Shown: piece by piece, positions 3,452-35,189 of the stretch
Layout of the letters: every line of letters begins with the position of its first letter
Position numbering within the stretch: position 1 is the stretch's first letter
Source of the DNA: Promethearchaeati archaeon
GTDB lineage: Archaea; Asgardarchaeota; Heimdallarchaeia; JABLTI01
Reading direction: 5' to 3'
Assembly: GCA_013166835.1 (NCBI GenBank)
Contig: JABLTI010000027.1
Span: forward strand, 1 to 38,665
DNA: 38,665 nt
The notes under the pieces: model-generated
Databases searched by the model: none
Told to the model about the DNA's origin: nothing
What the model saw: the letters and a program-made list of their open reading frames with translations, nothing else
Translations under genes and position numbers: made by a program

Positions 3452-3469
3452 TTCTCATAAGTTTGAGAA
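3452..3469. promoter_or_regulatory. Palindromic operator TTCTCA-N6-TGAGAA, copy 1
   Basis: TTCTCA taagtt TGAGAA; extra half-site at 3430-3435 (22 bp away); adjacent to a minus-strand TATA (TTTTATAG). Confidence 0.7.
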
Positions 3470-8015: not shown

Positions 8016-8027
8016 CTTTAAAAAAAC

Positions 8028-9249: not shown

Positions 9250-9314
9250 TAAGAATCTCATTAAAATCGAAAATGTTTTATAGGTCAATCAAGCAGAAAA
9301 AAGTGCAATACCTT

Positions 9315-9455
9315 GGAGTGGTAGTGTAGCCAGGCAGCACGGCAGGCTCCAGAAAAAGTAAACAAAAATACTGACCGTTCGGAATGATGTAATTTTGGAG
9401 CGGTGCTCTCTTTAGAGAAACTTGCTGGTCGGGAGTTCAAATCTCCTCCACTCCA
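9315..9455 (+). tRNA. trnW: tRNA-Trp(CCA) with a 67-nt intron at position 37/38 (9353-9419)
   Basis: Acceptor GGAGTGG/CCACTCC, D-arm GTGT/GCAC, anticodon stem GCAGG/CTTGC with CCA at 9349-9351, T-loop TTCAAAT, relaxed BHB at the intron ends, T-run downstream. Confidence 0.95.
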
Positions 9456-9465
9456 CTTTTTTATC

Positions 9466-9891: not shown

Positions 9892-9959
9892 TGCCTTCAC
9901 ATTGGAGAATATATACATTCATAGTTATTACTTTTTTTTTCAGCTATAGGTGATAGTCA

Positions 9960-11426
9960 ATGGCTAACGATGAGAGTAATAATAGAGTAGAGAACTTTGG
10001 AAAACCTCCTAGTAGGATTGCTACTCTAGATTTTACTCGAGGATTAGCAATTTTCCTCATGACATTCTTCCACGGGTTTAACCATGTCTTTGATCCTAGT
10101 TGGTTCACAAGTGATCCCAGCGTAATTTTCGATACAATTCACCCAATAGCCATTGCACCAATAGGTTTTCTTGTTTATCTCGGAACTTGGAATTCTTTTT
10201 TCTTATTGGTATCCATAACAGTCAATACTCTAGGCATGGTTAAAAGTGCACAAAAAGGAGCTAATCTCGAGAAAATTCTTTTACGAAGAATAATAACTGG
10301 ATTATTTCTTTTCATCGCTGATTATATTATTGAAGCACTTCTTTACTATGGATATTTTGGAAATGGTATAAAGAATGGTGCTTGGAGTGCCATCTCCAGA
10401 TTTTGGTTGCATTTCTTTGGGATCAGAACTCTGCAAATTATAGCTTGGTCGATAGTCATTACTTCAGTTATTAATTATTTCTTACTGCGTAAGAATGGTC
10501 ATCAAAAGTATGTTCGTAACATGATTATCTTTGGTATACTGGCATTATCTGTTCTTATTTCTACCCAATTTGTTCAGAATGCAGTTGATAACATGCCTTG
10601 GGAATCACCTGCGGGGTATACAGGTGGAGGATGGCCTGATATCGGAATACAAGAGTACAATGCTTCTTTTAGAACGTGGATTTTTGTGCAAATTGCTGGA
10701 GGGCTAGAACCCTTCTTTCCGTATCTCTGTACGTCTTTTGTAGGTGCGATGATTGGTTTAACAGTGTGTTTAGCTAAACCTCCGAAATATATTACGCCAT
10801 TCTTTGGATCTACGGGATTACTAATGATGATTCTTGGAGCTGTTTTAATTGCACTAGGATATCCTATGGTATTCGATACTCGCTCATCGCTGCCAGTGTT
10901 TCTGTTACAATTAGGAGGTCAGATGGGATTACTTATGCTCTTCTTTAGAAGAGTTGAATTTAAAGGTCGCGGAAAGGTTTTTGCGGATAATTGGCTATCA
11001 AGAGAACTACGATTATGGTCTATGGCATCGCTATCAATTTATGCACTAGAGATTTTCGATTTCGTTCCAGCATCTTTTATGAATCTGATTGCAGGACGAT
11101 TCGTTGGGCATAATTTCTTGTTAAGGACATTTAATCAACCTCATCAAATGGGTTATGCTCTTTTGTATGCTTGCTTTTCACTTTTATGTTATATTGGTTT
11201 GATTCGAGTATGGTCTTTGGCTAATTTTACAGGTTCTTTTGAGTGGTTCTTGTTAAGAGTACAAAATGGTTTTAGAAAACCAAAACTCAATCGACTTGAT
11301 GTTGATTTAATCCTAAATAAAACCGGTTGGATCATTTTCGTTGATCAAGCCAGCGATATAAAACAAGTATGGATACATAGAATTCAACAAAAGTTCAAGA
11401 AAACAGATGAAGAAATTTTGCAGTGA
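9960..11426 (+). CDS. Multi-pass membrane acyltransferase-like protein (HGSNAT-catalytic/DUF1624-like)
   Basis: RIATLDFTRGLAIFLMTFFH N-terminal motif, many TM segments, SLSIY and GSFEW C-terminal motifs. Confidence 0.75.
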   Translation: MANDESNNRVENFGKPPSRIATLDFTRGLAIFLMTFFHGFNHVFDPSWFTSDPSVIFDTIHPIAIAPIGFLVYLGTWNSFFLLVSITVNTLGMVKSAQKGANLEKILLRRIITGLFLFIADYIIEALLYYGYFGNGIKNGAWSAISRFWLHFFGIRTLQIIAWSIVITSVINYFLLRKNGHQKYVRNMIIFGILALSVLISTQFVQNAVDNMPWESPAGYTGGGWPDIGIQEYNASFRTWIFVQIAGGLEPFFPYLCTSFVGAMIGLTVCLAKPPKYITPFFGSTGLLMMILGAVLIALGYPMVFDTRSSLPVFLLQLGGQMGLLMLFFRRVEFKGRGKVFADNWLSRELRLWSMASLSIYALEIFDFVPASFMNLIAGRFVGHNFLLRTFNQPHQMGYALLYACFSLLCYIGLIRVWSLANFTGSFEWFLLRVQNGFRKPKLNRLDVDLILNKTGWIIFVDQASDIKQVWIHRIQQKFKKTDEEILQ

Positions 11427-11532
11427 ATACATTATACAAAAAGTTAACAATAAACAAGATTTTGAATAAAAGTCTTTAATGAAGAATCATTTCTTGATGA
11501 TATTTACAATATCAGGAACGATTAAAGCTTTG

Positions 11533-12525
11533 ATGAATGTAGATTTAATGAAGAAAGTAGTCGATGATTTCGATGACGGAAAGGATGTTGTTGGAACCAG
11601 ATTAATTAAAAGATGGAAGCATGATGAAGGAACACTGAAATTATGGCGTGCGAGTTCTAATTTTATCTATGTATTTCGAGAAAATGACAAACGAAAAATA
11701 TTACGAGTCACTCCTGATGCAGAAAGAACAATAGATCTACTTTTAGCTGAAATGGATTTCTCAGATCATTTGAGAAAGAAAGGCATACCAATTCCTGAGC
11801 CAATTCCATCTCAGGATCAAAACAAAATTGAAACGCTAATTACTGATTTCGGAACATTCTATGGAATTGTTATAGATTTCATTGAGGGAGATTGTATTGA
11901 TGATCATAATGATTTCGATGACGAGAGATTCCTAGAATGGGGCAGAATTCTAGCAAGAATACATAAAGCAGCATTAAGCTTTAAACCGAAACCAAAACGT
12001 AGACGAAAAACTTGGGAAGAAGACATAGATATGGCAATAGGCTGGTTGCCACAAGAAGAAAAGGAATTTAGAGAGAAGCTTAAGTCAATTAAAGATTGGA
12101 TTAAATCAATTCCTCAAGATGAGTTTTATGGTTTACTACACTATGATGTAGAACCTGATAATATAATTTGGACAGAGAAATCGTATTATATTATTGATTT
12201 TGATGATGCAGCATATTACCCATTTGTAGCAGATCTTGCATTCGCACTAGAAGAGATTAGAAAAGAAGAACCAGATGTTGAAGGAGAGATGCTTTATAAG
12301 TTCATTAAAGGATACACATCTGTCAAAAGCTTACCAAAAGATTGGGAAAACCAACTAGAACAATTCTTTACTTTGATGGATATCTACAAATACGCTCGAG
12401 TGATACATGCTTATGAGAACACAGAACCTAAAACAGATCGTGAATGGACTCAGAAAATGAGGGAAAGACACCACAAAAGCATGAAGGAAACAAAGAAAAG
12501 ATTGCAGAAAAAATGGAATAATTAG
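11533..12525 (+). CDS. APH/homoserine kinase type II-like phosphotransferase
   Basis: SSNFIY, WGRILARIH, LLHYDVEPDNI catalytic loop, IIDFDD. Confidence 0.9.
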   Translation: MNVDLMKKVVDDFDDGKDVVGTRLIKRWKHDEGTLKLWRASSNFIYVFRENDKRKILRVTPDAERTIDLLLAEMDFSDHLRKKGIPIPEPIPSQDQNKIETLITDFGTFYGIVIDFIEGDCIDDHNDFDDERFLEWGRILARIHKAALSFKPKPKRRRKTWEEDIDMAIGWLPQEEKEFREKLKSIKDWIKSIPQDEFYGLLHYDVEPDNIIWTEKSYYIIDFDDAAYYPFVADLAFALEEIRKEEPDVEGEMLYKFIKGYTSVKSLPKDWENQLEQFFTLMDIYKYARVIHAYENTEPKTDREWTQKMRERHHKSMKETKKRLQKKWNN

Positions 12526-12740
12526 TGCAATCCAATTACCGAATTGTTTTCATGCCTCTTGACCTCAACAAGATAATTGGATTGCGGTTTTTGTCTAGAA
12601 TGAAACCTCCGTGAGCATTCCCCTTCACCGAGTGGTGAAGAAGAGTAGAGTCCGTATTATTAGCCTTCCTCCTGCGACAGAGTTCATCGGAGTTAATTGT
12701 CTAACTCATTCTTTACCTGCAGAGTCTTTCTTGCAGAACA
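12526..12740 (-). ncRNA. Candidate stand-alone structured ncRNA (~210 nt), family unknown
   Basis: Five stems including a perfect 12-bp stem (12527-12538/12574-12585). Two stems extend with G.U pairs only on the minus strand. A TATA-like ATTAAATA with A-rich BRE lies on the minus strand at ~12761-12776. Confidence 0.55.
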
Positions 12741-12961
12741 ATAAACCTTTTTCTTTCTAGTATTTAATTTTTGTCCCGCCACTAAAAAATGAGTTAATTC
12801 CAGATTAGGTAGGACTATAAATATATCCTTGATTCGTTTTTCATTTGGATGTTTTTAAAGAAGAAAGGAAATTATATAAATGAAAAACAGAAATTAAAGC
12901 AGTCGAGAAAAGAAGATTTATATATTGTCCCGAGTCTTAAATAATTGTAGATGTGATATAG

Positions 12962-13552
12962 ATGTCCGAAGAGAAGAAGAAACGAGGTCGCCCAAGAGTT
13001 TACAATACTAATGCTGCGCGAAAAAAGGCATATCGAGAAAGGAAAAAAGCTGAACGAAAAGAATTAGAAGTAGAAATTGAAAAGATGCAAAAAGATTTAG
13101 ATTTTATTCGAAAAGAAATTGAACAAAAAGATCTTACTGATAATCCATTTTTACATTTAACCTATAAAGATTTAAGAAATGCTAGTTTGGAGCAACTAGA
13201 TGAATATTCTAAGGATTTGATAGCTATAATTGGTGGGCAATATTCTCTTTTAAGTCCCCTACAAGTTATCGTTAAGGACATCATAAATCAATATTCAGTG
13301 AAAAAAATAGAGGATTGGAGCGCTTTTAATCCTGATCAAAAAGTAGCCATCGATGTTAGCGGGAAAATACTTGATTTCTATTCCATCATCCAGAATTTGA
13401 CTCTATTGAATTTAATAGACTTAGAACTAAAGAATAGAGGACAAGATAAGAAAATTGATATTGAGCTTTCTGAAATCGAAAAACAAATTTTCGAGTTAGA
13501 AGAAGAATTTGCAGAAAAGAGGAAAGTCAAACTTTACGAAAAAATAGATTAG
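12962..13552 (+). CDS. Putative DNA-binding protein: AT-hook-like KRGRPR, basic region and coiled coil (bZIP-like)
   Basis: KKRGRPR followed by N-AARKKAY-R-ERKKAERKE-L-x6-M-x6-I; second coiled coil at the C-terminus. Confidence 0.6.
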   Translation: MSEEKKKRGRPRVYNTNAARKKAYRERKKAERKELEVEIEKMQKDLDFIRKEIEQKDLTDNPFLHLTYKDLRNASLEQLDEYSKDLIAIIGGQYSLLSPLQVIVKDIINQYSVKKIEDWSAFNPDQKVAIDVSGKILDFYSIIQNLTLLNLIDLELKNRGQDKKIDIELSEIEKQIFELEEEFAEKRKVKLYEKID

Positions 13553-13674
13553 TTTTGCATTATTCTTTTTTTCATTCTTTTTTAGATTCTAAAGCGTTTA
13601 GTATTTTTGCTAGTATATTTTTTATAATAACATTGATAATTTAGTAATAATTATTGAGCTTGATTAAATTGATA

Positions 13675-14505
13675 ATGAAGAATGAAACTGCTATAATCAC
13701 TGGTTCAACTAGTGGCATTGGATTAAGTATTGCTGAAAAATTTCTAGAAGCAGGTTGCAAAGTTACTATTAGTTCTAGAAGTGAAGAGAAAGTGAAGAAG
13801 ACTCTTGCAGAACTAACTAAGAAGTATAAGGACTCTGTCATTGGTTTTGCATGTGATGTTAACGATCCTAAAGCTTTGAAGAAACTCGTTGATAAAACAA
13901 TAGAGAAATTTGGGTCAGTTCGTATACTTATTGCAAATGCTGGAACAAATAGAACTTATGGACCATTTAGCAATTTAACTGCAGACATGGTTAGTAAAGA
14001 TGCAATTACTGTAATTGGAACTAATTTGATTGGGACTCTTAATTCTATTGCAGCAGTTATGCCTCATATGATTCAACAAAAATATGGGAGAATCATCACT
14101 TTATCTGGTGCTGGAGCAGAAAGACCAATGGAGAATATGACCATTTATACAGCTTCTAAGGGAGGTGTCGTAGCATTTTCCAAAAGTCTGGCATTAGAAA
14201 TGTCTCAGAGAGAAGAAGATATAAAAATCAATGTCTTTGCACCAGGAATGATTAAGACAAATCTGGCATCTAATGCCGATCTTGTTCCTAATTGGGGAGT
14301 GGGAGAAGATTATGAAGGCAATTTAGAACTTGCTCATGAATGTCTTGGAACAGACATTGATACTAGTTGTGATAAAGTAATTCCATATGCTTTACCTGAG
14401 CTTAAAGATAATGGGAAAGTATTTCGTGGATTCAAAATAATAAAGATGATTACCGGTGGAATAAAATATCAAAGAAAGATGAAAAAAGCTAGAAAAAGTA
14501 CTTAA
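13675..14505 (+). CDS. Short-chain dehydrogenase/reductase
   Basis: TGSTSGIG, IANAG, YTASK. Confidence 0.95.
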   Translation: MKNETAIITGSTSGIGLSIAEKFLEAGCKVTISSRSEEKVKKTLAELTKKYKDSVIGFACDVNDPKALKKLVDKTIEKFGSVRILIANAGTNRTYGPFSNLTADMVSKDAITVIGTNLIGTLNSIAAVMPHMIQQKYGRIITLSGAGAERPMENMTIYTASKGGVVAFSKSLALEMSQREEDIKINVFAPGMIKTNLASNADLVPNWGVGEDYEGNLELAHECLGTDIDTSCDKVIPYALPELKDNGKVFRGFKIIKMITGGIKYQRKMKKARKST

Positions 14506-16723: not shown

Positions 16724-17505
16724 ATGAGAAGAAAAAAAATTATAGCAATTAGTCTATTTGTTTTTGTATTCGCATTTATGCCAATTACTATCGTAAACGC
16801 TTGTCAACCTCCACTTCCACCTGAGATTACTATATAGCAAGTAGTACGAATTTCACACCTGATAGAACTTTGATTTTGGATCAGTTAACTGAAGATGCTG
16901 CACGATGTGGCATTAAGTTGAATATTGAACTCATAAGCTACTATGATATTATACCGAAATTGTTTGCCGGTGATTATGATTTAATAATGTTCATAACTTT
17001 AGCTTGGTATCAACCAGCTTCATTTGATACGATATTTTTCTATCTTGATTATTACTATGGAGATTCCAATCTCTGGAATTATCACAATGAAGTCTTAAAG
17101 ACAAAAATACAAGAGATGAAAGATTTCTACTATAATGGATTTGAAGCTGAAGCTATCGAGGTATTCCACGAAATCGAATTAATCATATATGAAGAACAAC
17201 CCAGCCTTGCATTATGTTACCACTTAGACACAATGTTAATTCATACACATCAAATAATAGTTAATAGTCATCTGGACAGACCTGGTAAAGATATTGCAAT
17301 TAGGAAAGCATTAACTTTCTTAATTGATCGTGAACTCTACACTTCCGCTATACAAACATCCAGTATATATACAATTTACCAAACTAGTCATTTGTTTGGT
17401 TGGTCACAATATCATGATACTACTCTTCCAGAAATAGATCACTCTATTGGAAAAGCAACAAGTACATTGGCACATGCAGGATTTAAACCAAGAGCAATAA
17501 AGTAA
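16724..17505 (+). pseudogene. Minimal family-5 ABC substrate-binding-like protein; signal peptide out of frame (frameshift near 16832)
   Basis: ATG 16724 gives signal-peptide-like MRRKKIIAISLFVFVFAFMPITIVNAC..., stopping at TAG 16835-16837; another frame gives YIASSTN...CGIKLNI...GDYDL...IRKALTFLIDR...LAHAGF. Confidence 0.65.
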
Positions 17506-17524: not shown

Positions 17525-18457
17525 TTATAAAATTGTTTCAATAAATTGTATAATTCTCTCTATTACTATTTCTTTTTCCGAACCAAAAAGAATAGTATGA
17601 ATAGAGTTTGCTGCAAAATAATCTTCTTTGATCTTGCTTTTAACCAACTCATGAATCTTCTCGGCATTGTATAGTGGAACACGATCATCCAATCCTGCAG
17701 TAATGGTGAGGATGGGTGCTGTTACATTCTGTATTTCCTCTCTTGCAACTTCCATTAAATCCAACATATGTTCAACTGCTTTTAAGGCAGAAACACGATA
17801 ATTTAACATGCTATTTTTCTCCATGAGTTCAATTTCTTTTTTTCTTCTTGGGAAATATTTCAATAAATCTGCGACTAAAAATATATAATCTTGCATGAAA
17901 TACTCGACTTTTATAGGAGCACATAATGTGACTATAGCATCGACAGTTTCATGTGCTGCTAAAATAAGAGATAAGGTTGCGCCCATAGAGTGACCGATTA
18001 GTATTATTTTTTTACAATATTGCTTAATGAAATCATAACTTTCCTTTACTGATTTGTACCAATCTAGCATATCTGTTTGAGCTAAATCAGCTGGACTTGT
18101 TCCATGACCTGCAAGAAGAACTCCAAAGGTAGAATAACCAAATTGCTCATGAAGAAGCAGTCCAAGATCATTCATTTCTTGAGCAGTGGAAGAAAAACCA
18201 TGTACTAAAATAATTCCAACATCATTCCCTTTAAAGAAAAAAGGACCAGCATTGTCTCTTATATTTCGCTCCACTTTTTCAGGGGCTAAATTATCTATTG
18301 CTGCTAGTACGGATTCCATTGGTAAGGAAGAGGAGACAAAAGATTTTGAATCTCTACGAAGAAAACTAATAGTAAATGAATTCAACCATGAAAGCATTTC
18401 TTTATAGGGCGAGAATACATTAGAAATAATCTGTTTTCTTGATGGTTTTTTCGACAT
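17525..18457 (-). CDS. Carboxylesterase/monoacylglycerol lipase-like alpha/beta hydrolase
   Basis: VHGFSS, LAGHG, GHSMG nucleophile, DDRV, C-terminal His. Confidence 0.9.
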   Translation of the reverse strand: MSKKPSRKQIISNVFSPYKEMLSWLNSFTISFLRRDSKSFVSSSLPMESVLAAIDNLAPEKVERNIRDNAGPFFFKGNDVGIILVHGFSSTAQEMNDLGLLLHEQFGYSTFGVLLAGHGTSPADLAQTDMLDWYKSVKESYDFIKQYCKKIILIGHSMGATLSLILAAHETVDAIVTLCAPIKVEYFMQDYIFLVADLLKYFPRRKKEIELMEKNSMLNYRVSALKAVEHMLDLMEVAREEIQNVTAPILTITAGLDDRVPLYNAEKIHELVKSKIKEDYFAANSIHTILFGSEKEIVIERIIQFIETIL

Positions 18458-18485
18458 ATAAAATCCTCATCAAAATCTAAATTTT

Positions 18486-19055
18486 TTACTCTTGACTCGC
18501 ATCTAATGAAACATCTTGTTTCTGCATTTCAGCAATTTCCTTCCTGAATTTCTCAATTGGTTTCTCTTTCTTTCGACCAAATTTAGTTACAATGGGAATA
18601 AGGACACCAAATGTTAGTAAAGCCGATATTGGTATGATTGCCCAATCCATACCTATTGGGCCATCGTTTGGTGGAAAAACGAGATCAATTGCCAAAAGCA
18701 AACCACTTGCTCCAAACATAAGAATTGGTCCAACAATCCACGCAATAGCAGGGCGCTTAAAAATAATGAAACTCACAATATAAGCAAAAAATAATCCTCC
18801 TACGGCCCACCAAGCCCAATCTACTCGTATCCATGCAGTATTAGGCAAAGTAACAACATCAATGATAATTAGGAACACACTAATCAAAAAAATATTCAAT
18901 GGCGTAACCCACCACTTGTATTTTGGTATTCGATCCCAAAATGTTCTCTTAGTATGTGAAATATTGCTTTCCTTTTCTTGTGTGGTTGCTTGAATTGACT
19001 GCAAAATATCTTTTGAATTTATCTCTATTGTTTCCTTTTTCTTCTTCGCACTCAT
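18486..19055 (-). CDS. Hypothetical membrane protein with an internal two-helix repeat
   Basis: Four TM segments; repeated LxxID...DWA pattern. Confidence 0.7.
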   Translation of the reverse strand: MSAKKKKETIEINSKDILQSIQATTQEKESNISHTKRTFWDRIPKYKWWVTPLNIFLISVFLIIIDVVTLPNTAWIRVDWAWWAVGGLFFAYIVSFIIFKRPAIAWIVGPILMFGASGLLLAIDLVFPPNDGPIGMDWAIIPISALLTFGVLIPIVTKFGRKKEKPIEKFRKEIAEMQKQDVSLDASQE

Positions 19056-19157
19056 GACTATCAATTGAAATTCTACGAATAACTATTTATTATTTTGTAA
19101 TCCAGTCAATATTTGAGTAACCAATTCACTACAAAATGATTGCAAAATCGTAAGCTA

Positions 19158-20822
19158 TTATATTTCTTCTTCCACAGTAATTGCTTTTCCATCATTGAAT
19201 ATTTTTCCATCTTTTAACTCAATAACTCGAGTTCTGTCTCTAACCAGGTTTATATCATGAGTGGTAATCAACAATGTGATTTTTAGTTGTTTATGGATTT
19301 TGTAGAGCTGATCCATTACATTATCAGCAAGTTCTGCATCCATATTAGCGGTTGGTTCATCTAATATCAGAAAACCAGGTGCCCCAAAATTGGCAATAGC
19401 TAAGGAAGCTCTTTGTAATTCCCCTCCAGAAATCTCTAATGGATATGAGTTCTTTCTGTGATCGATTTGAAACTTAGTGAAGGTTTCATCAATTTTATCT
19501 TGTGGGTACTTCTTAAGAATTATATTATTACCTGAAAGCATATCTCTGATAAAGAGATTCTCAGTCACTGTGATGAATGGATGCAAATCTCCTTGTTGGG
19601 AAACAATGCCAATATTATTTCTTCTGAATTTTGCTCGTTCGGCATCATTCAAATTGTGTAATTCTTCATTTAAAACAGAAATATTGCCAGCACTGCAAGG
19701 TTCAATTCCAGTAATAAGTTTGATAATAGTAGTTTTACCGGAACCACTTGGTCCAATAATGAATGCTAATTCTCCTTTAATGATCTCTATATCTATATCA
19801 GTCAAAGCTGGAACTTCTAAGTTTTTACTCCGATAGATTTTATCAACGCCCTTCAAACTAATCTCGATTTCTTTCTTATCAAAATAATTTGCTTTTAATG
19901 GAGTAATAGACAATTTTTTCTGTTTCTTCATTTCTGCGACATCAATCTTCTTAGGAGGGATTCCATCTGGATGTAAGATCTCAACTTTGGAATCTTCTGT
20001 TACTACAAAATCAACTTTATCCTTTAGATGGAGTAAATCATAGACCTCATTTGGGATTCGAATGTTCTGTGAAGAATCAATTTGTCCTTTGAAAAATATG
20101 GGAAATTCTCGTTGATTGAGGATCCCACTTTCTTCGACATTAAAGAGCGAACTTACACGACCACTGTGAATCTCACAGGTTTTATCTACACCTCTTAGGA
20201 AGCGCATATCATGTGTTACAACTAAAACAGTAGTTCCATATTCTCGAGCGATTTGTCTCAACATTTCCTTAACTATTTCAGTATTCTCAGAGTCTAATTG
20301 TCCCGTGGGTTCATCACATAACAAAAGGGGAGCATTTTTCGCTAAAGCACTTGCTATAGATGTTCTGATCATTTCTCCACCGGAGAGATAACTAACTCGT
20401 CGATTTTCAAGATGAGCTATTCCTAATGTTTCTAGAATTTCCATGTTTCGTCTTCGATTTTCAGAGCGATTATCTGAATATAGACTAGAAGCAAAGTTAA
20501 GATTATCTATTACAGTGCCTGAGAGAAACAACGTTCGCTCTGGAAACTGATGAACTAATCCGACCATATTTAATCGGTAATCCAATAACTCAGCTAGCTC
20601 TAATTTTCCAACATCATAAGATCCAACTCTTACATCACCACTTGAAACAGCTACCATTCCTGCGAAGATTTGAATTAGAGTAGATTTCCCAGAACCACTT
20701 GGACCAATTATCGAGATAACTTCTCCTTTCTTGACTCGTAAGTCAATTCCACGTAAGGCAGCTATTCGAGTTTTTGTTTCTTCATCGGTGTAAATTTTTA
20801 TTACATCATTACAGTGAATCAT
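19158..20822 (-). CDS. Double-NBD ABC ATPase (LolD/MacB-like) with a central AbrB-like domain
   Basis: GPSGSGKS/LSGGE/DEPT and GPSGSGKT/ISGGE/DEPT; linker GQIDSSQNIRIPNEVYDLLHL. Confidence 0.92.
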   Translation of the reverse strand: MIHCNDVIKIYTDEETKTRIAALRGIDLRVKKGEVISIIGPSGSGKSTLIQIFAGMVAVSSGDVRVGSYDVGKLELAELLDYRLNMVGLVHQFPERTLFLSGTVIDNLNFASSLYSDNRSENRRRNMEILETLGIAHLENRRVSYLSGGEMIRTSIASALAKNAPLLLCDEPTGQLDSENTEIVKEMLRQIAREYGTTVLVVTHDMRFLRGVDKTCEIHSGRVSSLFNVEESGILNQREFPIFFKGQIDSSQNIRIPNEVYDLLHLKDKVDFVVTEDSKVEILHPDGIPPKKIDVAEMKKQKKLSITPLKANYFDKKEIEISLKGVDKIYRSKNLEVPALTDIDIEIIKGELAFIIGPSGSGKTTIIKLITGIEPCSAGNISVLNEELHNLNDAERAKFRRNNIGIVSQQGDLHPFITVTENLFIRDMLSGNNIILKKYPQDKIDETFTKFQIDHRKNSYPLEISGGELQRASLAIANFGAPGFLILDEPTANMDAELADNVMDQLYKIHKQLKITLLITTHDINLVRDRTRVIELKDGKIFNDGKAITVEEEI

Positions 20823-20827
20823 TTTAT

Positions 20828-23704
20828 CTACTCCTGTTTAACTGGTCTGTATCGATAAATCGCTGGTATCAAAGCTAGAAGCCATCCCAGCATTGAGATG
20901 ACTAAACCGCCTATTATTATCAGTACTATTGTCCAAGCAGGTATGCCTGGAGTATATGGTTGATAGAAGCTTTGTGACTCTAAGAAGAAATCTGCTACTA
21001 AACCAAATAATGGTAGAGATGCAAATACTGTGATCAGCAATGGTAGGGATATTACCAAAAAGTACTCAAACGTAAAGATAGCTAAAATTTGTCCTCTAAT
21101 TGCACCAACACGATATAAGGATTCGATTATTCGACCCCTTTCTTCATATATTTTCAAGCCTGTAAAGTAACTAACAAATATGATTGTAATAGCAGCTAAT
21201 ACAGCAAAAATTAGAATGTTATTTATAGGGAAGGTAACTAAACCAGAATACATTGAATCATAAATTTCTTCATAAGTTTGTGATGTAAAATTCAAAGCAT
21301 CTAGTTTTTCTTGGACAATCGAAACGGCTGATTCATTTACAACATTTATTAACTTATAATTCAGAATACGGAAATCAGTTGAGAAATCAATGCTTCTAGC
21401 AATCTCTCTTGCTGTAAATCTTTTCCCAACAATTGAGAAGGTGTCGAAATTTGGTACGAATGCTCTGTTAGTAGGATATGGTGTTAGTGGGAAAACTCTG
21501 AATGAATTAATGAAAGTTAAATTCTTTGGAAAACGAGTGAAATCATCAGGGATATATGTATCGCCAGGTCTCAAACCTCGATTTCTTTTGAATTTTATAT
21601 CTCCTAAAATTGTCATGTTGTTTTCTAAAGCACGAATATCTTCAACTGAACTTGAATAACTTCTTAGCTTATCAATATCAATAACTTCTAGGAATTCAGT
21701 AACATTTTCCAGTGAAACTATATTAACACTAAATGAATTAGGATAACGTCCAACTTCATTTTCGTCTGTGAAAGTATATACTTCAGCTTCTGTAAAGCTT
21801 GAAATCTCAGTGATATTTTCTAGTAGCACATCTTTTACTTCTGTTGGATCTACCCAATGACTGATTAGTAGATGGCAATCGCCCATTTTTAGATTGACTT
21901 CATTTCCAATATTTGTTTCAAGTGATTTGTTCATTGTTAATCCTGGGACTATTAATAGACCAAACAATAGAACACCCAGTATTGCTAACTGGTATGATTT
22001 CTTATAGACAGACAAATGTTGAATGGATAATGAATACAAATTGAGTCTTTTGGGCCAAACACTCTTACTGATAAAAGCCCAAAACATAGAAATGACTCGA
22101 GCAATAATTAAGAATGCAAAAGTTAGAAGAAATGCCACAGTGCACGTAATCATGAACCAGAAGAGTGTCAAATAAGACATGCTGGATACTACTATAGAAA
22201 TCTCTCCTAAATTTCGATACACCATAAAGAGGGAAATTGAGACAATTGTAAAAATTAAAGCTATAACAAACAATCTGAATTCGTTTGTAGAGAAAATCCC
22301 ACGGATTCTTCCTCTTTTCTCTTTGAATTCTTCCGGTGTGGTTTGAGTTGTTTTCTTAGCGATGGTATTTTGTATATAGAAGCTTAATCCGAAAAATCCT
22401 ACAATTATTGTTCCTAGACCCATAAGCAGTAATGGTTCTAACATGAAATTAAGATAATAATTCGAAGGTTGACTTTCAATTCCCATAGTAAAAAGATAAC
22501 TTACACCAAATCCCAATGAAGTTCCCACTATAAAGCTGACAAACGTAAATATCAAGTTTTCAAAGAAAACCATTCTTCTTACTGAGCGATAACTTAAACC
22601 ATAAAGTTTCATTCTTCGAAATACTGCACCTAGCTCTCTTGAACCAATATTCAGAGTAACTACACTCAGAAGGCCAACTATGAACAGAAGTGGAGCATTT
22701 AACGGCAATAATTTTGTTGTATTCAATGTCCAAAGACTATTAAATTGGATCAAAAATAATTTCAAATCCTGACATAATAAAACAGGACTTTCTGTAAAAA
22801 CTGATTCTAACAAATCATTCAAGTCAGGTATTTCATAAATATAGTTTTGCCAATTCGTAGGTTTGATTGCTGAAGAATCATAACTTACATCAACTAGATA
22901 GGTTAGAATACCTTCATAAGATGTCATATTGTTTAGAACTTCAGTATAAAGTGAGTTATCAGTAACAAAAATGTTATACCGATAATAATTGAAAAATTCA
23001 ACAATACTACCTTCAAAATTCCAATTGAAGAGATCTAGTGAAAGACTTTCGTTTATAAAAGTCTCAGTCATATTCCCAACTAACCCTACAATTGTGAAAT
23101 TCTTGGCACGTCCTGTATGCCATTCACTATACAAAGTAATAGTATCATTAACTTGGAAGTCAGTTTGATTATTACTTGTTGTTAAATACAATAATTCTGA
23201 GTGATTCTGAGGAATACGTCCAGCTGTTATGTTTTGAATGAGACCAGTATATGTTCGATTATCGAACGTCATTATTTCATGATTAAGCCAAGGTTCCCCA
23301 GGAATAGTCGGATCAAAAGTGTAAATTTGAGTGCTTAGTGCAGTTGATTGATTTCGAAATTTAATATCAGGAAAGAGATCATTTACCATACTAGTGTAAT
23401 CTTGAGTAATAATCTCAAGGTAGGAGGTATTTAGATTAAATACACCCGGGGCATACTCGTTGGAACTAATGCTGATTAGACCATCATTGAACCAATTCTT
23501 CTCCTTTTGAAAAGATTGAAAAGTATTGAATCGATATGTGTAAACAATCATAACTAAACTTGTAATGGCAAGGAAAATAAGTGTCCCACAAATTACAGAA
23601 AGAGTTACTCTTCTCCGACCTGTTTTCAGAAAAATCTGAAATAATTGCCATTTGTTTCGCTTTCTACTTTCACTAGTTGGATCCACTTCAGTATTTGCCA
23701 TCAT
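20828..23704 (-). CDS. FtsX/MacB-like ABC permease with two large extracellular domains
   Basis: GRIP..E motif; R-x-LYG/VGA...E TM3 motifs occur twice; two 4-TM halves. Confidence 0.88.
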   Translation of the reverse strand: MMANTEVDPTSESRKRNKWQLFQIFLKTGRRRVTLSVICGTLIFLAITSLVMIVYTYRFNTFQSFQKEKNWFNDGLISISSNEYAPGVFNLNTSYLEIITQDYTSMVNDLFPDIKFRNQSTALSTQIYTFDPTIPGEPWLNHEIMTFDNRTYTGLIQNITAGRIPQNHSELLYLTTSNNQTDFQVNDTITLYSEWHTGRAKNFTIVGLVGNMTETFINESLSLDLFNWNFEGSIVEFFNYYRYNIFVTDNSLYTEVLNNMTSYEGILTYLVDVSYDSSAIKPTNWQNYIYEIPDLNDLLESVFTESPVLLCQDLKLFLIQFNSLWTLNTTKLLPLNAPLLFIVGLLSVVTLNIGSRELGAVFRRMKLYGLSYRSVRRMVFFENLIFTFVSFIVGTSLGFGVSYLFTMGIESQPSNYYLNFMLEPLLLMGLGTIIVGFFGLSFYIQNTIAKKTTQTTPEEFKEKRGRIRGIFSTNEFRLFVIALIFTIVSISLFMVYRNLGEISIVVSSMSYLTLFWFMITCTVAFLLTFAFLIIARVISMFWAFISKSVWPKRLNLYSLSIQHLSVYKKSYQLAILGVLLFGLLIVPGLTMNKSLETNIGNEVNLKMGDCHLLISHWVDPTEVKDVLLENITEISSFTEAEVYTFTDENEVGRYPNSFSVNIVSLENVTEFLEVIDIDKLRSYSSSVEDIRALENNMTILGDIKFKRNRGLRPGDTYIPDDFTRFPKNLTFINSFRVFPLTPYPTNRAFVPNFDTFSIVGKRFTAREIARSIDFSTDFRILNYKLINVVNESAVSIVQEKLDALNFTSQTYEEIYDSMYSGLVTFPINNILIFAVLAAITIIFVSYFTGLKIYEERGRIIESLYRVGAIRGQILAIFTFEYFLVISLPLLITVFASLPLFGLVADFFLESQSFYQPYTPGIPAWTIVLIIIGGLVISMLGWLLALIPAIYRYRPVKQE

Positions 23705-23760
23705 TAATACCAATTTATTCTCACAAATTCCATTTAAAAGAGTTCATCTTAATCTTGGTA

Positions 23761-23778
23761 TTCTCACTTCTATGAGAA
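23761..23778. promoter_or_regulatory. Palindromic operator TTCTCA-N6-TGAGAA, copy 2 (upstream of the ABC operon)
   Basis: TTCTCA cttcta TGAGAA; extra half-site at 23718-23723. Confidence 0.7.
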
Positions 23779-23857
23779 AATGCTCTTATTCAACAAAATT
23801 AGGTTTTTACAAACAAAGAAAAAAAATGAAGAAAAAATAAAGAAGTTTGAATATAAT

Positions 23858-24493
23858 CTAGGATGAGTAAATTTTCTCTAATTCCATTTTTATATCATAT
23901 TTCAAAAGAATTGCTATCCAAGAAGCGTATTCAAGAGCAAAAAGGATATTTTTACCTTCTAAATCGCCAAGTTTATTCATAGTTTCTTCATCGGCTTTCT
24001 CATACAAATCCATGATATATTGATCCCTTTCATTATCGATCTTATCAAAGAATTTCTTGAATGCTTTTTTACCGATTTTTTTGTTACCATATTGTTGTTT
24101 CAACAACAGATACATTGAATCAAAAATTGGTGAATGAAAATCTTCTTTTTCTTTTTTAGCTAAAGGAATCTTTAATATGAAAGCATTTGAAGTTCGCATA
24201 TATAGTGTTTCACTTATCAAATCACTTTCATTTTTAGTGGTAATTCTTTTACCAGCTTTAGCGACAAGTTTCGCCTGGATGAGTTTGTGCAAATAGCGGT
24301 AAATGCTTTTATCGGATTTCTCTTCTTCAATCCGCTTGAAATTATCACTTAGGTCATGTATTGTCATAGCTCCTTTTCGAAGAAATTTTAAAACGTAGTT
24401 CAGATTTTCATCTGAAAATAGCTTGTTCTTTTTCTCATCTTTAATGAAAATCATTTTCGCGGGTTTATAGGTTATTACATCTTGGGAAGACAT
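23858..24493 (-). CDS. Winged-helix (ArsR-like) transcriptional regulator, paralog 2
   Basis: VLKFLRKGAMTIHDL...SDKSIYRYLHKLIQAKLV...ETLY; 211 aa, paralogous to its neighbour. Confidence 0.82.
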   Translation of the reverse strand: MSSQDVITYKPAKMIFIKDEKKNKLFSDENLNYVLKFLRKGAMTIHDLSDNFKRIEEEKSDKSIYRYLHKLIQAKLVAKAGKRITTKNESDLISETLYMRTSNAFILKIPLAKKEKEDFHSPIFDSMYLLLKQQYGNKKIGKKAFKKFFDKIDNERDQYIMDLYEKADEETMNKLGDLEGKNILFALEYASWIAILLKYDIKMELEKIYSS

Positions 24494-24507
24494 TACACAT
24501 CACCACT

Positions 24508-25143
24508 TTACTCGCACTTAGCAAGCTCCTTTTTCATATCTATTTTAGCAGCTAATGCAGCCCAACTCGTATAATTCAAACAATACTCTAATTCTCGCCA
24601 TTTCAATTCATTTATTTCCCGAATAGAGCTATCTTCGATATTTTTAAACAATTCAACTAACAAATCATCCCTATCTTGATCTATCTTAAACAAGAATTTT
24701 TGAAAGCAATCGCTATCCAATGTTTTACCATCAAGAACTGGTTTTAATAGGAGTCTTGCTGCATCAAAAACGGGACAAAAACCTTGTTCATAAAATTCAA
24801 GATCATGCTTTAATGATTCAGGAAAAATGAATGCTTTTGCAGCTCGCATATACAATGTTTCGCTTTTTAATTCATCTTCTGTAATTGAGATAATTCTCTT
24901 TCCAGCTTTCGCTACTAATTTTGCTTTTATTAAAGTATGAAGATAACGATAAATAGTTTTATCTGATTTCTCTTCTCCGCTTTTCTTAAAAAAGGTGACT
25001 AAATCCATAATTGTCATAGGTCCTTTTTGGAGGTATTTTAAAACAGGAAAAAGATTTTCATCTCGTATTACTTTTGCGGTTTTATCATCTTCTATGACTT
25101 TTACGATTTTTTGTGTATAAGTTATTACGTCTTGCGAATCCAT
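24508..25143 (-). CDS. Winged-helix (ArsR-like) transcriptional regulator, paralog 1
   Basis: VLKYLQKGPMTIMDL...SDKTIYRYLHTLIKAKLV...ETLY. Confidence 0.82.
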   Translation of the reverse strand: MDSQDVITYTQKIVKVIEDDKTAKVIRDENLFPVLKYLQKGPMTIMDLVTFFKKSGEEKSDKTIYRYLHTLIKAKLVAKAGKRIISITEDELKSETLYMRAAKAFIFPESLKHDLEFYEQGFCPVFDAARLLLKPVLDGKTLDSDCFQKFLFKIDQDRDDLLVELFKNIEDSSIREINELKWRELEYCLNYTSWAALAAKIDMKKELAKCE

Positions 25144-25292
25144 TCTATCAGCGCTCCTTCCTTCTTTTTTCTTGGTTTTAATTCATTTCGAATTTAGGGG
25201 CTTTTCAATCCTTATTTAAGGATTGTTTCTCATCTATATATTATATGATTCTTAAAGTATATAAATTTATTTCTTAATACTCTAAAATGAAA

Positions 25293-25310
25293 TTCTCAGC
25301 AGAATGAGAA
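25293..25310. promoter_or_regulatory. Palindromic operator TTCTCA-N6-TGAGAA, copy 3, next to a plus-strand TATA
   Basis: TTCTCA gcagaa TGAGAA, then atcTTATATAT, then a half-site at 25327-25332 (22 bp away). Confidence 0.72.
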
Positions 25311-25372
25311 ATCTTATATATGAGTATGAGAATAGTTTCCTACCAAAGTGGTAAAGTTTGGGTGAAAAAAAA

Positions 25373-25474
25373 GTGAAAGAGAAGAAAAGTATCCCCACAA
25401 AAAAAGATGGTAGAAGAGATATAGACAAAGTCAAGATTATCTTGACAATGTTTTACTCAGATGGTTTGATTTGA
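25373..25474 (+). CDS. Small peptide ORF A, 33 aa: MKEKKSIPTKKDGRRDIDKVKIILTMFYSDGLI
   Basis: GTG start after a GGGTGA SD-like element; downstream of the TATA box; below the ORF-track size cut-off. Confidence 0.55.
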   Translation: MKEKKSIPTKKDGRRDIDKVKIILTMFYSDGLI

Positions 25475-25503
25475 TCACTAAAAAAAATTAAAGGTAGATA
25501 GAA

Positions 25504-25578
25504 ATGAAAGAAATCAAGAAAATGAAAAAAGAAATCAAAAAGCAACTTGTTCCCTTATTGGAAAAGAAAAAATACTAA
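25504..25578 (+). CDS. Small peptide ORF B, 24 aa: MKEIKKMKKEIKKQLVPLLEKKKY
   Basis: ATG after an AGGT SD-like element; Lys-rich amphipathic sequence. Confidence 0.45.
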   Translation: MKEIKKMKKEIKKQLVPLLEKKKY

Positions 25579-25611
25579 TCAATATGATTCATGTAATATG
25601 AAGGGTCCAAA

Positions 25612-25701
25612 ATGAATGAAAAGAAGCAAGATTACAAAAAGAAAATCCAGGCAGATAAAAATAAAACCAGAATGAAATTCGCCCTATTTACTGGCAGATG
25701 A
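25612..25701 (+). CDS. Small peptide ORF C, 29 aa: MNEKKQDYKKKIQADKNKTRMKFALFTGR
   Basis: ATG after an AAGGGT SD-like element; stop codon runs into a GC-rich hairpin. Confidence 0.55.
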   Translation: MNEKKQDYKKKIQADKNKTRMKFALFTGR

Positions 25702-25730
25702 GAACGCTCCTTCCATGGGGAGCGCTCTTA
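25699..25730 (+). terminator. GC-rich hairpin ending the small-ORF transcript
   Basis: CGCTCCTT-ccat-GGGGAGCG; its U.G pairs form only on the plus strand. Confidence 0.55.
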
Positions 25731-28293: not shown

Positions 28294-29724
28294 CTAAACT
28301 GTTTCTGTAATTTGTGGTTTTTCAGCGTTTTTATCATCAATGGTATTTGAAGGCCACCATAATATAGGTGTTGGTGCGATTACCTTTCCTTCTACATCTA
28401 AGAAGTCACCTATGAAATATTTCCGAACTTTTTCCTTTCGCATGAAAGGCACTTTGAGTATCATCGCAAAAAGCCAATCTACTGTATAGAGGAAATGACC
28501 TTTTTCCCACAACCAAAGTATACCGAACCACATTGCTATTTCTAAGAATATTAGAAAGAAGGTCCAACCTGTAGGTAAACCAAAGCTAACTCTAAAACCT
28601 GGATCGGTCCAGCCAAATAAATTGAAGATTCCTGACAAACTAACACGTAAAACAGCTTGTATAGAACCTAATGAGTAAACAGTTAATGAAAATACTCCTA
28701 CACGTCGACTGTGACGTGACCACATTAAACGTTTAAACCAATCTATTTTTGGATTAAATTCATGAAGATGTAACATTAGAGTGATAACAAATAGTATCAT
28801 ACCTGTTGATAAATAAACAAACCATGCAGGATGTACATGGAAATTAACAAGAGCTGTAAATTGATCGAAATTCTGTGGCATATCTCCTTCTAACCATAAG
28901 TGAAAAATTGAGAAGACCATAAAGAATGCAGAAAAACCATAGCCTACTCGGACAAATCTCTTGGGTTTAAGATGCTTTCTTGAAATAAAGATTCCAATAA
29001 TAGCTCCAACGGCACTATACGCATAGTGCGTAAATAATGGTGATTCCGTACTCACAGCTTGATTTGCGAAATAACTAACGATATAGTCCCACCAACCCTT
29101 ATCACCGACTACACTCAAATTACCTCCTGAATGAAAATCTACCCCCCAAAAAGTATTAGCAGCATTATAGATTACTGGAGCAAGATAAATGAATAGTAAT
29201 CCAAGTGTAGCGAAAATAGCTGTTCCTACAAATGGATTCTGTAATTTCTTATTTGAAGTTAAGATATAGAAAACAACTGCTGACACTATTATCGCAAAAG
29301 CGATGTTAGTAAATTGATCAGTATGATAAATTTGTTTCCAATCAATAGAGGAACTTCCGGTTTCAACCCATTGCTTCGATAATCTCCATTGAGCTAAGAA
29401 GACATAGAAGAACATGGCCCAAAGGTAGAGCATAAACCCCTTAAATAATTCCTGAACGAGAATCACATGTCTTGGAACGCCATTTCTAAATTTCCTATAC
29501 ATGATGTAAATATGAATAGCAGCGCTCATCATTAGAAACAAACCACGCCAGTGCCCAAAAACAATAATAATTGCCATCAGAATGACTCCCAAAGTGTTTA
29601 GGCTCCCAGGATCAGTTTCTGCAATTCCTTCCACTTGACTGACCAACATAAAAGTATGAACTAATAGATTGCCAATTATAGCCCAACCTCGTAAAATATC
29701 AAAGGATATGATTCGTTCGCTCAT
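28294..29724 (-). CDS. Multi-pass membrane acyltransferase-like protein (DUF1624-like), paralog of 9960-11426
   Basis: RIISFDILRGWAIIGNLLVH, SLTVY, TVDW. Confidence 0.75.
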   Translation of the reverse strand: MSERIISFDILRGWAIIGNLLVHTFMLVSQVEGIAETDPGSLNTLGVILMAIIIVFGHWRGLFLMMSAAIHIYIMYRKFRNGVPRHVILVQELFKGFMLYLWAMFFYVFLAQWRLSKQWVETGSSSIDWKQIYHTDQFTNIAFAIIVSAVVFYILTSNKKLQNPFVGTAIFATLGLLFIYLAPVIYNAANTFWGVDFHSGGNLSVVGDKGWWDYIVSYFANQAVSTESPLFTHYAYSAVGAIIGIFISRKHLKPKRFVRVGYGFSAFFMVFSIFHLWLEGDMPQNFDQFTALVNFHVHPAWFVYLSTGMILFVITLMLHLHEFNPKIDWFKRLMWSRHSRRVGVFSLTVYSLGSIQAVLRVSLSGIFNLFGWTDPGFRVSFGLPTGWTFFLIFLEIAMWFGILWLWEKGHFLYTVDWLFAMILKVPFMRKEKVRKYFIGDFLDVEGKVIAPTPILWWPSNTIDDKNAEKPQITETV

Positions 29725-31359: not shown

Positions 31360-31956
31360 TCATACAGACTGACCTAAGATTGTCAGTAACAAGAAAATAC
31401 CAACAAGAATTAACGAAGATAATAAAGTTCAAATACACCACTTAACATTCTTGTATTTTCGCAGATTTACAACTGAAATAGCATAAATTTGTTCTGAGAA
31501 TTCTTCTTCAATTGAAGAAAAGTCGTTAAGAATTGTTCTTAATCCCTTTAGATATTCTTCTTTGTCTTTGTACTCAAGAATATTAACATAATAGAAGACA
31601 TGTTTTGGATCTGGAATTCCTGTTTTCTGGAAAGGTAAAATTGTGAGAATACTGAATGTTATACTTGTTAAGCAGGATATTAGATAAGCAACTAAGAAAA
31701 CAATGGCAGCGATATTTACGTTGTTCTCTATACTGAATATACCTCCAAGTAGACCAACCATTGCAAGAACAACAGTAAGCATAATTCCATTGACAGTGAG
31801 AATAGCTGTTGCTTTGTTATCGGCTAAGCTGATCAATTGATAGTTACTATCAATTATCTGTTTCAATGTCTCAAATTTTTGTTCATTGGTTCTTTCTTGG
31901 ACATCTCTTTCACTGCTCACGAATCTAAAGGTTCTCTCTTTTTTAATTATTTTCAT
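31360..31956 (-). pseudogene. Pycsar effector-like (DUF5706/PycTM) membrane protein with an in-frame TGA at 31431-31429
   Basis: ISLADNKATAILTVNG, ILP, QIYAISVV..RKY; the frame continues TLLSSLILVGIFLLLTILGQSV* after the TGA. Confidence 0.7.
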
Positions 31957-35171: not shown

Positions 35172-35189
35172 TTCTCACCATATTGAGAA
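35172..35189. promoter_or_regulatory. Palindromic operator TTCTCA-N6-TGAGAA, copy 4
   Basis: TTCTCA ccatat TGAGAA; degenerate second site ending in TGAGAA at 35206-35211 (22 bp away); adjacent to a minus-strand TTTATAA. Confidence 0.7.

Follow-up and report, generated by a model that had tools for sequence, protein, structure and literature searches.

A conserved micro-protein operon linked to PH1932-like winged-helix regulators in Heimdall-group archaea

Several described bacterial circuits pair a DNA-binding regulator with a small peptide. Peptide signalling of the RRNPP type (Rgg/SHP, ComR/ComS, PrgX/PrgQ/PrgZ) belongs to Gram-positive bacteria and involves an Opp-type binding protein, and in these systems the peptide gene adjoins the gene of its regulator, often divergently, and lies under the operator of that regulator. 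The antagonist SinI is a small protein encoded beside the DNA-binding repressor SinR and is homologous to the oligomerisation domain of SinR. In staphylococci, leaderless phenol-soluble modulins (PSMs), which are strongly amphipathic and hydrophobic, form one circuit with the ATP-binding cassette (ABC) system Pmt and the winged-helix repressor PmtR. For the RRNPP comparison we also drew on the regulator-peptide pairs of Paenibacillus, as treated in the available part of PMC7425212. In archaea, quorum signals are described as small molecules in the available part of a 2025 paper (PMC12240190). Here we describe a 38,665-nucleotide stretch of DNA from a Promethearchaeati archaeon of the Heimdall group (contig JABLTI010000027.1 of assembly GCA_013166835.1; hereafter the window), in which three small peptide genes, pepA, pepB and pepC, lie divergently from a tandem pair of winged helix-turn-helix (wHTH) regulators, wHTH-A and wHTH-B, with an operator between them. 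In the literature searched (subscription journals not covered), we found no description of these peptides, of this operator or of archaeal peptide signalling.

From the start codon of wHTH-B (25143, minus strand) to the stop codon of a DegV gene (25795), the gap measures 651 bp. It holds on the plus strand an operator, a TATA box, three open reading frames (ORFs) of 33, 24 and 29 aa, each preceded by a Shine-Dalgarno (SD) sequence, and a hairpin, and so bears out the initial annotation of this DNA, which had placed such a unit in a gap of about 650 bp. The features of the unit and of the regulator genes are as follows.

25373..25474, plus strand: pepA, 33 aa, GTG start; conserved C-terminus ...KILLTM(F/Y)YSDGLI
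25504..25578, plus strand: pepB, 24 aa, less conserved than pepA and pepC; similar to the N-terminal half of pepC
25612..25701, plus strand: pepC, 29 aa; conserved C-terminus ...(T/A)R(M/I)K(F/Y)AL.TG(R/K)
25702..25727, plus strand: stem-loop directly 3' of the pepC stop codon, terminator or 3'-end-stabilising
25293..25310, no strand: operator O1, a perfect TTCTCA-N6-TGAGAA, at the centre of the divergent control region between wHTH operon and peptide operon
25314..25332, plus strand: core of the peptide promoter, with a TATA box at 25314-25321 and an extra TGAGAA half-site at 25327-25332
25144..25292, minus strand: promoter and leader of the wHTH operon, with TATA-like stretches, a TTCTCA half-site at 25227-25232, a palindrome at 25206-25225 and the SD sequence GGAAGGAG ahead of the start codon
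24508..25143, minus strand: wHTH-B, 211 aa, PH1932-like winged-helix protein by profile match
23858..24493, minus strand: wHTH-A, its 211-aa paralogue, which starts 14 bp past the end of wHTH-B and is without an operator of its own

We compared the window with 78 other loci (labelled L001, L002 and so on); together, window and loci gave 62,933 stop-to-stop segments. The three closest loci, L001-L003, are contigs of Heimdallarchaeota metagenome-assembled genomes (MAGs) with regulators 89-95% identical to those of the window. The whole unit aligns at 87-93% in these three loci. Sequence conservation collapses past the hairpin, and the next gene, DegV, is convergent in the window and in L001-L004.

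The peptide genes were examined first as coding sequences. The annotated frame is the only stop-free frame of six across eight pepA and seven pepC orthologues, and the pooled ratio of non-synonymous to synonymous change (pN/pS) is 0.35 for pepA and for pepC, with pairwise values of 0-0.75 for pepC. Compared with L002, pepA has 6 synonymous and 2 non-synonymous differences. At one and the same position the start codon of pepA reads GTG, GTG, ATG and TTG in the window and its three close relatives, and the ORF is intact in all four. A TTG further upstream, at 25358, was considered as the pepA start and rejected, because a one-base indel puts it out of frame in L001-L003. SD-like sequences (GGAGGTGA) stand 7-10 nt before the peptide starts, that of pepA being GGGTGA-like and 8-9 nt upstream.

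Searches by tblastn and with hidden Markov models among the stop-to-stop segments matched pepA 10 times (window and nine loci, the ORF being intact in each) and pepC 20 times (window and 13 Heimdall loci). Every one of these matches is less than 1 kb from a regulator of the same family and on the opposite strand, with the sole exception of L012, where the match is 91 bases from the end of the available sequence. Among 1.84 billion representative proteins the pepC profile found 21 matches, 20 of them with the pepC motif; 18 of these 20 are 28-44 aa long and end with the motif, one of 58 aa has it N-terminally, and the last, at 86 aa, seems to be a gene call extended too far. The 21st match is a K-rich repeat protein without the motif. 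Homologues of pepB occur at the same position in L001, L002, L004, L009, L010, L014 and L015 and also in L005-L007, which carry a diverged three-peptide operon at the equivalent position in the order C-like, B-like, A-like. Profile comparison with hhalign related pepB to the N-terminal half of pepC with a probability of 68%, and pepA to pepC only faintly (23%).

These comparisons show that the small ORFs are real genes under selection; pepB is the weakest of the three families. The idea that the ORFs arose by chance in purine-rich spacer DNA, a caution raised in the initial annotation, draws on an AT- and purine-rich genome with frequent Lys codons, and on a pepB that is poorly conserved and shortened in L003. 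Frame-specific openness, pN/pS, start-codon interchange, SD sequences and homologues in diverged modules and in the global library all speak against it. For pepA and pepC the comparative data refute it, and for the operon as a whole we regard it as extremely improbable. Members of the three families span 24-36 aa and are invisible to routine annotation. The peptides matched no Rfam or PADLOC family (Pfam is not applicable at peptide size), and for the unit PADLOC gave only generic ATPase matches. No Rfam family matched the window at the gathering score, with only a chance rRNA match within the gap, and the window contains no tRNA genes.

All three peptides are Lys-rich, with net charges of +4 (pepA), +7 (pepB) and +7 (pepC). 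They are hydrophilic, with grand average of hydropathy (GRAVY) values of -0.59, -1.15 and -1.60, and their whole-peptide hydrophobic moments are 0.16, 0.39 and 0.07, respectively. None of the three has a signal peptide or hydrophobic export segment, and there is no hydrophobic stretch beyond the last ~8 residues. In these properties they resemble neither PSMs nor leaderless bacteriocins nor the hydrophobic precursors of pheromones. Conservation is concentrated at the C-terminus, which in the window reads ...MFYSDGLI in pepA and ...KFALFTGR in pepC, and the basic N-terminus is variable.

We know of no operator, regulon or peptide partner for PH1932 of Pyrococcus horikoshii, the closest described relative of the regulators. 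A profile of 26 family members matches this ArsR-type winged-helix protein (PDB 1uly_A; also 2cwe) with E = 1.4e-7 and over nearly its full length, positions 12-206 against residues 3-183. In the available part of a Pyrococcus transcription-factor census, PH1932 forms a wHTH family of its own (PMC6316755). Neither wHTH-A nor wHTH-B reaches any Pfam or NCBIfam HTH model, HTH_5 and ArsR included, and a precomputed PF01022 assignment is found in only two of 41 homologues of wHTH-B. All of those homologues that are named are from Asgard archaea, and the closest are proteins named Candidatus Heimdallarchaeota MAG. By Pfam the regulators have no domain of the tetratricopeptide repeat (TPR) type; their C-terminal domain aligns with that of PH1932. 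From these alignments, the regulators are best placed in a PH1932-like branch of the ArsR-type wHTH proteins. The two paralogues, which the initial annotation had recognised as a tandem pair, are 46% identical, are kept together in L001-L004 and fall into two separate clades of the family tree.

The sequence TTCTCA-N6-TGAGAA occurs in four perfect copies in the window (25293, 23761, 3452 and 35172), as compared with 0.31 expected, and none of 100 shuffles reached four. Two of these copies lie at the peptide promoter and at the promoter of a neighbouring ABC operon, as had been noted from the sequence of the window. Comparison with L001-L003 showed that the half-sites are invariant and the spacer variable among orthologues. 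We then surveyed 1.15 Mb, in which some loci overlap, with 108 wHTH starts. Of 37 perfect N6 sites, 20 are within 300 bp upstream of wHTH starts, regions that make up 2.8% of the bases, and a site with at most one mismatch is present upstream of 39 of the 108 starts. The same palindrome, spaced N5 or N6, stands upstream of family members across Asgard archaea. In a quick maximum-likelihood tree of 103 family members the spacing is clade-specific. One clade, of MAGs labelled Hermod, Thor, Odin or Prometheo, has perfect N5 sites in 12 of its 14 rows, and within the Heimdall clade a third module type uses N5 and the other types use N6. Spacers of 5 bases were noted in the control regions of L013-L016 and L011 and in the clade of L028-L046. 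This co-occurrence suggests that TTCTCA-N5/6-TGAGAA is the cognate DNA site of the wHTH family. The N5 and N6 clades also form a natural experiment relating operator spacing to regulator sequence.

Most control regions share one order. On the peptide strand the operator is followed after 2 bases by the TATA box, after 5 more by the TGAGAA half-site and after ~40 nt by the SD sequence and start codon. Of the 15 module control regions compared, 13 show the order operator, TATA box, half-site, as do those of L005 and L007. The ABC promoter has the same order with a TATA-like box; its operator is perfect, lies 48 nt upstream of the permease start and is kept at the equivalent position in L001, L002 and L003. 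At the operator copies at 3452 and 35172 a TATA box immediately adjoins the site. The promoter and leader region of the wHTH operon is nearly invariant in L001-L003. We consider this regulatory architecture well supported. The presumed wHTH leader also contains a perfect 20-bp palindrome at 25206-25225 (CAATCCTTATTTAAGGATTG), of which only the right arm is conserved in L001-L003. This palindrome was tried as a shared operator and rejected, since it is unique in the window.

The effect of an archaeal regulator depends on whether it binds over, upstream or downstream of the B recognition element (BRE) and TATA box. Given this logic, sites that flank a TATA box with operator and half-site should gate the access of TBP and TFB. 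In the model that we propose, the module would be run by PH1932-like winged-helix regulators that recognise TTCTCA-N6-TGAGAA. Homo- or heterodimers of wHTH-A and wHTH-B would occupy the operators and gate TBP/TFB access; among the targets, the peptide operon would then be switched most tightly, and the regulators would be autoregulated. The micro-proteins would most likely modulate the regulator or its regulon by feedback, from within the cell or from the cytoplasmic side of its membrane, and would probably not be exported by the FtsX-type ABC system. That system, the detoxification-like enzymes and the surface proteins would form the physiological output, an envelope or xenobiotic response.

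The association of peptide and regulator genes supports the idea of a cognate pair. In a 29-row Heimdall clade every free-standing wHTH gene has a divergent pepC-type gene, except in one sub-clade, and in tandem modules each module has its own. Regulator, operator and pepC-type gene have been passed on as a set in five or more sub-clades of a single Heimdall clade. We take a pepC-type gene that stays beside its regulator through at least five sub-clades, with a separate copy for each tandem module, as the signature of a cognate pair. At a confidence somewhat short of even, we tentatively favour an autoregulated regulon in which the output under the tightest gate is a micro-protein, the cognate partner of the regulator. 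That the peptides are an intracellular partner feeding back on the regulator or regulon is a part of this reading that we hold more loosely, as possible but doubtful.

A number of observations weigh against the partner reading. Between the window and L009, pepC is 86% and pepA 76% identical, whereas the regulators are only 45-48% identical (L009 compared with wHTH-A and wHTH-B). If the peptides were a private partner of the diverged C-terminal domain, they too should have diverged, and the proposal in the initial annotation that the peptides are ligands of the wHTH C-terminal domains is weakened to that extent. The nucleotide identity between the same two loci (85.5% over operator, promoter and pepA, and 91.6% over pepC and hairpin, with the pepB stretch between them not alignable) is more than protein constraint alone calls for, so that a role at the RNA level may be involved. 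Gene conversion between paralogous modules was considered as the cause of the conservation of pepA and pepC and rejected, because the pepB stretch between them has diverged. As a comparison, SinI and SinR share with this module a small protein encoded beside a DNA-binding regulator and, as proposed here, intracellular modulation. However, the peptides show no relation to the wHTH proteins by hhalign (probability 0.2% for pepC and 0.4% for pepA), so mimicry of the SinI/SinR kind does not apply; on the same probabilities an origin of the peptides from the regulator was rejected. The binding of the operator by the regulators is, moreover, a prediction from their co-occurrence. In L008, L009, L010, L014 and L015 three paralogous surface-protein genes follow the peptide operon in the same direction, an arrangement that is also compatible with leader peptides or with participation in surface assembly. 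Finally, two of the peptide genes are damaged in close relatives. In L001 pepC (3684-3764) has a TTG start and a premature stop and has lost the conserved C-terminus, and in L003 a stop cuts pepB (2460-2525) to 19 aa. This damage could be real decay in lineages without the downstream operon, or assembly errors.

The far stronger conservation of pepC and pepA than of the regulators in the comparison with L009 points to a conserved target or to an added constraint at the RNA level. A conserved target is the core of the proposal that the peptides are general small basic effectors, stress-induced cationic micro-proteins whose target could, for instance, be the ribosome, nucleic acids, the cytoplasmic side of the membrane, or the surface or transport proteins under the same control, with the regulator merely controlling them. 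Such a target would be something other than the diverged regulator domain. The strong positive charge of the peptides, their co-regulation with envelope and detoxification-like genes and the strand that they share with three surface-glycoprotein genes in the five loci named above are consistent with this proposal. It does not lead one to expect, however, that a diverging copy is retained beside each duplicated regulator, and the peptides resemble no known family in the searches given above. We rate it as rather unlikely.

A constraint at the RNA level directs attention to the hairpin after pepC. Its core (25705-25724) was listed as terminator-like on the plus strand by a terminator scan, and the extended hairpin folds with -22.6 kcal/mol (z = -3.1). 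Across the eight sequences that keep the hairpin, 91.7% of cells are paired; the single compensatory pair does not reach significance (121 of 500 shuffles), and the covariation was dropped as too weak to serve as evidence. In every pepC subtype the hairpin directly follows or overlaps the stop codon. The hairpin 5' arm and loop (CGCUCCUUCC) could base-pair with the SD region of the wHTH-B mRNA (minus strand, 25145-25165) at -21.7 kcal/mol, a value equalled by one of 200 shuffles. This complementarity is present also in L001-L003, L009 and L010, and not in L004. The match may simply reflect the SD-like character of the sequence, or it may link the two transcripts by antisense pairing.

With these features the peptides could be leader or arrest peptides, such that translation of pepC to its stop controls the hairpin 2-4 nt further on and read-through beyond it, or the 3' end of the transcript could itself be a regulatory RNA. 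The position of the hairpin in all pepC subtypes, the co-directional operon downstream in the five loci, the unusually high identity of pepC and hairpin to L009 and the complementarity to the wHTH-B SD region would all fit such a device. Leader-peptide attenuators likewise have a hairpin, but a co-directional next gene exists only in those five loci and not in the window. In the window the next gene, DegV, runs convergently, as it does in L001-L004, so that there is nothing to read into and the peptides cannot serve as leaders there; the stand-alone pepC2 and pepC3 genes likewise precede convergent genes. In addition, conservation of the amino acids outlasts divergence of the nucleotides (subtypes C1-C4 and the library proteins), the covariation of the hairpin is not significant, and archaeal termination is not known to need hairpins. 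We consider a leader or RNA device quite unlikely.

The surface proteins that follow the peptide operon in L008, L009, L010, L014 and L015 are ~320 aa long, secreted, C-terminally anchored and rich in sequons, and belong to no Pfam family. In L009 the triplet precedes genes for a beta-propeller protein of 1156 aa and an ABC-2 transporter. The triplet genes are absent from the window and from L001-L004. Three peptides thus precede three surface proteins, which may or may not be coincidence; triplets were noted also for L005-L007.

Of the two further operator copies, listed here with their neighbours, the one at 35172 bears on peptide signalling, which was among the functions first suggested for this locus.

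35172..35189, no strand: operator copy flanked by the genes for a 295-aa protein without a family (34214-35101, minus strand) and an ANT(2'')-like nucleotidyltransferase (35282-35911)
36006-37886: surface-anchored SBP_bac_5 protein, assigned by Pfam, next after the ANT(2'')-like gene
3452..3469, no strand: operator copy with a half-site and TATA box on its left, between an 83-aa ORF (3109-3360, minus strand; SD GGTGA) and a nitroreductase (3622-4311)

The SBP_bac_5 protein of the window has a signal peptide and a C-terminal anchor. Such family-5 (Opp/Dpp-type) binding proteins stand directly behind the operator in the window, L005, L008, L009 and L014, as confirmed by Pfam. The binding protein of L002 is supported by tblastn, and ORFs in L010 and L015 are candidates by their equal size. 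The orthologous operator of L002 (L002:1925) lies between the binding-protein gene and the 295-aa gene; the nucleotidyltransferase is absent there. No Opp-type permease or ATPase genes were found beside the operator-linked binding proteins. The nearest solved relatives of these proteins bind peptides, nickel or sugars.

These binding proteins raise the question of whether the peptides are secreted signals. On this account pepA-C would be pro-peptides whose C-terminal 8-10 residues are released, sensed by the operator-controlled binding proteins and brought to act on the wHTH regulators after uptake or relay, which would close an autoinduction loop. The likeness to RRNPP systems extends to a peptide gene that is divergent from the regulator and under its operator (here judged from the position of the site), a conserved C-terminus behind a variable basic N-terminus, several paralogous regulator-peptide pairs in one genome, as in MAG 12F4_9, which contributes L004, L014 and L016, and a binding protein of the Opp type. 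The differences are that the receptor has no TPR-type domain, the peptides are very hydrophilic without signal peptide or export segment, no Opp permease is nearby and the host is an archaeon. The circuit therefore resembles the Gram-positive cassettes of regulator plus small peptide but, by this analogy, would not belong with them. No processing protease was identified, the ligands of the solved relatives are not confined to peptides, and cytoplasmic peptides are improbable cargo for the FtsX-type ABC system. Together with the lack of archaeal peptide signalling in the literature searched, this leads us to regard secreted signalling as unlikely. Of the signal circuit as first suggested, the recurrent operator-linked, surface-anchored SBP_bac_5 protein is a point in favour that had not been foreseen, and the missing signal peptide or export segment is a point against. 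The full form of the idea would be the first archaeal cell-to-cell signalling based on peptides, in which the released C-terminal 8-10 residues are captured by the binding proteins and fed back to PH1932-like regulators, and paralogous N5 and N6 pairs serve as separate channels in one genome. As the more specific claim it is, if anything, slightly less likely still.

The ABC system lies downstream of the regulators on the minus strand and comprises the following features.

23714..23790, minus strand: promoter of the ABC operon, with operator O2 at 23761-23778, the TATA-like box TTTTAAAT at 23733-23740 (minus) and a half-site at 23718-23723
20828..23713, minus strand: permease, 961 aa, with two FtsX domains (Pfam PF02687, two stretches) and two large extracytoplasmic domains
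19158..20822, minus strand: ABC ATPase, 554 aa, two fused nucleotide-binding domains (NBDs) of the LolD/FtsE/MacB type (Pfam ABC_tran, twice)
17525..19064, minus strand: 192-aa membrane protein and 310-aa alpha/beta hydrolase downstream of the ABC genes, with synteny kept in L002 and L003

The hydropathy of the permease shows two extracytoplasmic regions of ~240-275 aa with three transmembrane segments after each. The ATPase scores 322.2 bits against TIGR02211 LolD (cut-off 307.75) and 281.5 bits against TIGR02673 FtsE (cut-off 264.85), values that are summed over the two NBDs. FtsX domains, large extracytoplasmic domains and NBDs of the LolD/FtsE type are shared with the type VII systems MacB, FtsX, LolCDE and BceAB. 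Here, by contrast, the halves are fused into a permease with two FtsX units and an ATPase with two NBDs, and no two-component partner or adaptor protein is encoded near the ABC genes. A sequence search of structures found no solved relative of the permease or of the two 295-321-aa proteins that flank operators. The 192-aa membrane protein and the hydrolase are possibly part of the ABC operon. Adjoining that operon is a 211-aa ORF (16870-17505) that matches only the middle of SBP_bac_5 and is probably a truncated or degraded binding-protein gene.

ABC systems of the FtsX/MacB type handle substrates that are already outside the cytoplasm and are not known to export peptides from within it. Among the comparison loci, only L002, L003 and L004 have the ABC system together with the peptide module (the sequence of L001 stops short of it), and in L004 it is 4 kb away with no operator visible. 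Both points argue against the suggestion in the initial annotation that this system exports the peptides. They bear equally on the proposal that the peptides are exported antimicrobial or PSM-like peptides (archaeocins), with the ABC system as exporter or immunity device and the regulators as switch. For that proposal one can cite a multi-peptide operon of cationic, leaderless products beside an ABC system and a regulator under one operator, much as in the staphylococcal PSM/Pmt/PmtR circuit, and NBDs that resemble those of many ABC families, exporters of bacteriocins and darobactin among them. However, pepA and pepC are neither amphipathic nor hydrophobic (no amphipathic hydrophobic helix at moments of 0.16 and 0.07 and GRAVY values down to -1.6; only pepB reaches 0.39), and ABC class and regulator family differ from those of Pmt and PmtR. 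The ABC system is absent from most peptide-carrying loci, its type VII mechanism speaks against export from the cytoplasm, and no immunity gene is recognisable. PSM- or archaeocin-like effectors, as once envisaged for this locus, are thus very unlikely.

Several other genes of the window and of the comparison loci were noted. The intervals 3622-14505 and 35282-35911 are dense in detoxification-like and antibiotic-modifying-like genes, including those for a nitroreductase, a phosphotriesterase, a GNAT protein, two DinB-family proteins, an APH-type kinase, an SDR protein, an MFS transporter and the ANT(2'')-like enzyme. At 31429-31956 (minus strand) is a 175-aa protein with a Pycsar effector transmembrane domain (PF18967, 1.3e-12; PADLOC PycTM, 1.6e-20), and its neighbours include no recognisable cyclase. 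Another two proteins, multi-pass membrane proteins of ~480 aa (9960-11426 and 28294-29724), belong to no Pfam family and are distant relatives of each other (21% identity, E = 2.5e-12). In the Hod-, Hermod- and Prometheo-labelled loci L017, L019, L020, L022, L023 and L026, the divergent gene across the operator encodes not a peptide but a cytoplasmic protein of 305-321 aa and no family, distantly related to the protein at 34214-35101 in the window (22-25% identity). A MAG labelled Candidatus Bathyarchaeia (L008, L011, L018 and L030; contigs DATKZI01...) carries modules of the Heimdall type, and its regulators nest in the Heimdall clade; the label or the binning of this MAG may be wrong.

The Heimdall group is the archaeal lineage most discussed as kin of eukaryotes. 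Our analysis suggests that in these archaea conserved families of micro-proteins are wired into the promoter logic of a regulator family that is found Asgard-wide. Through the predicted site TTCTCA-N5/6-TGAGAA, an uncharacterised regulator family would gain a concrete cognate DNA site, and with it a first regulon, in which an FtsX-type ABC system is joined by surface-anchored binding proteins, surface glycoproteins and detoxification-like enzymes. The site and the regulon alike can be tested in vitro with recombinant proteins and synthetic peptides, for which no culture is needed. If the peptides prove to be secreted, they would be the first case of archaeal peptide signalling. If they modulate the regulator, the module would be a switch made of a regulator and its micro-protein, of a kind that we did not find described for archaea in the literature searched.

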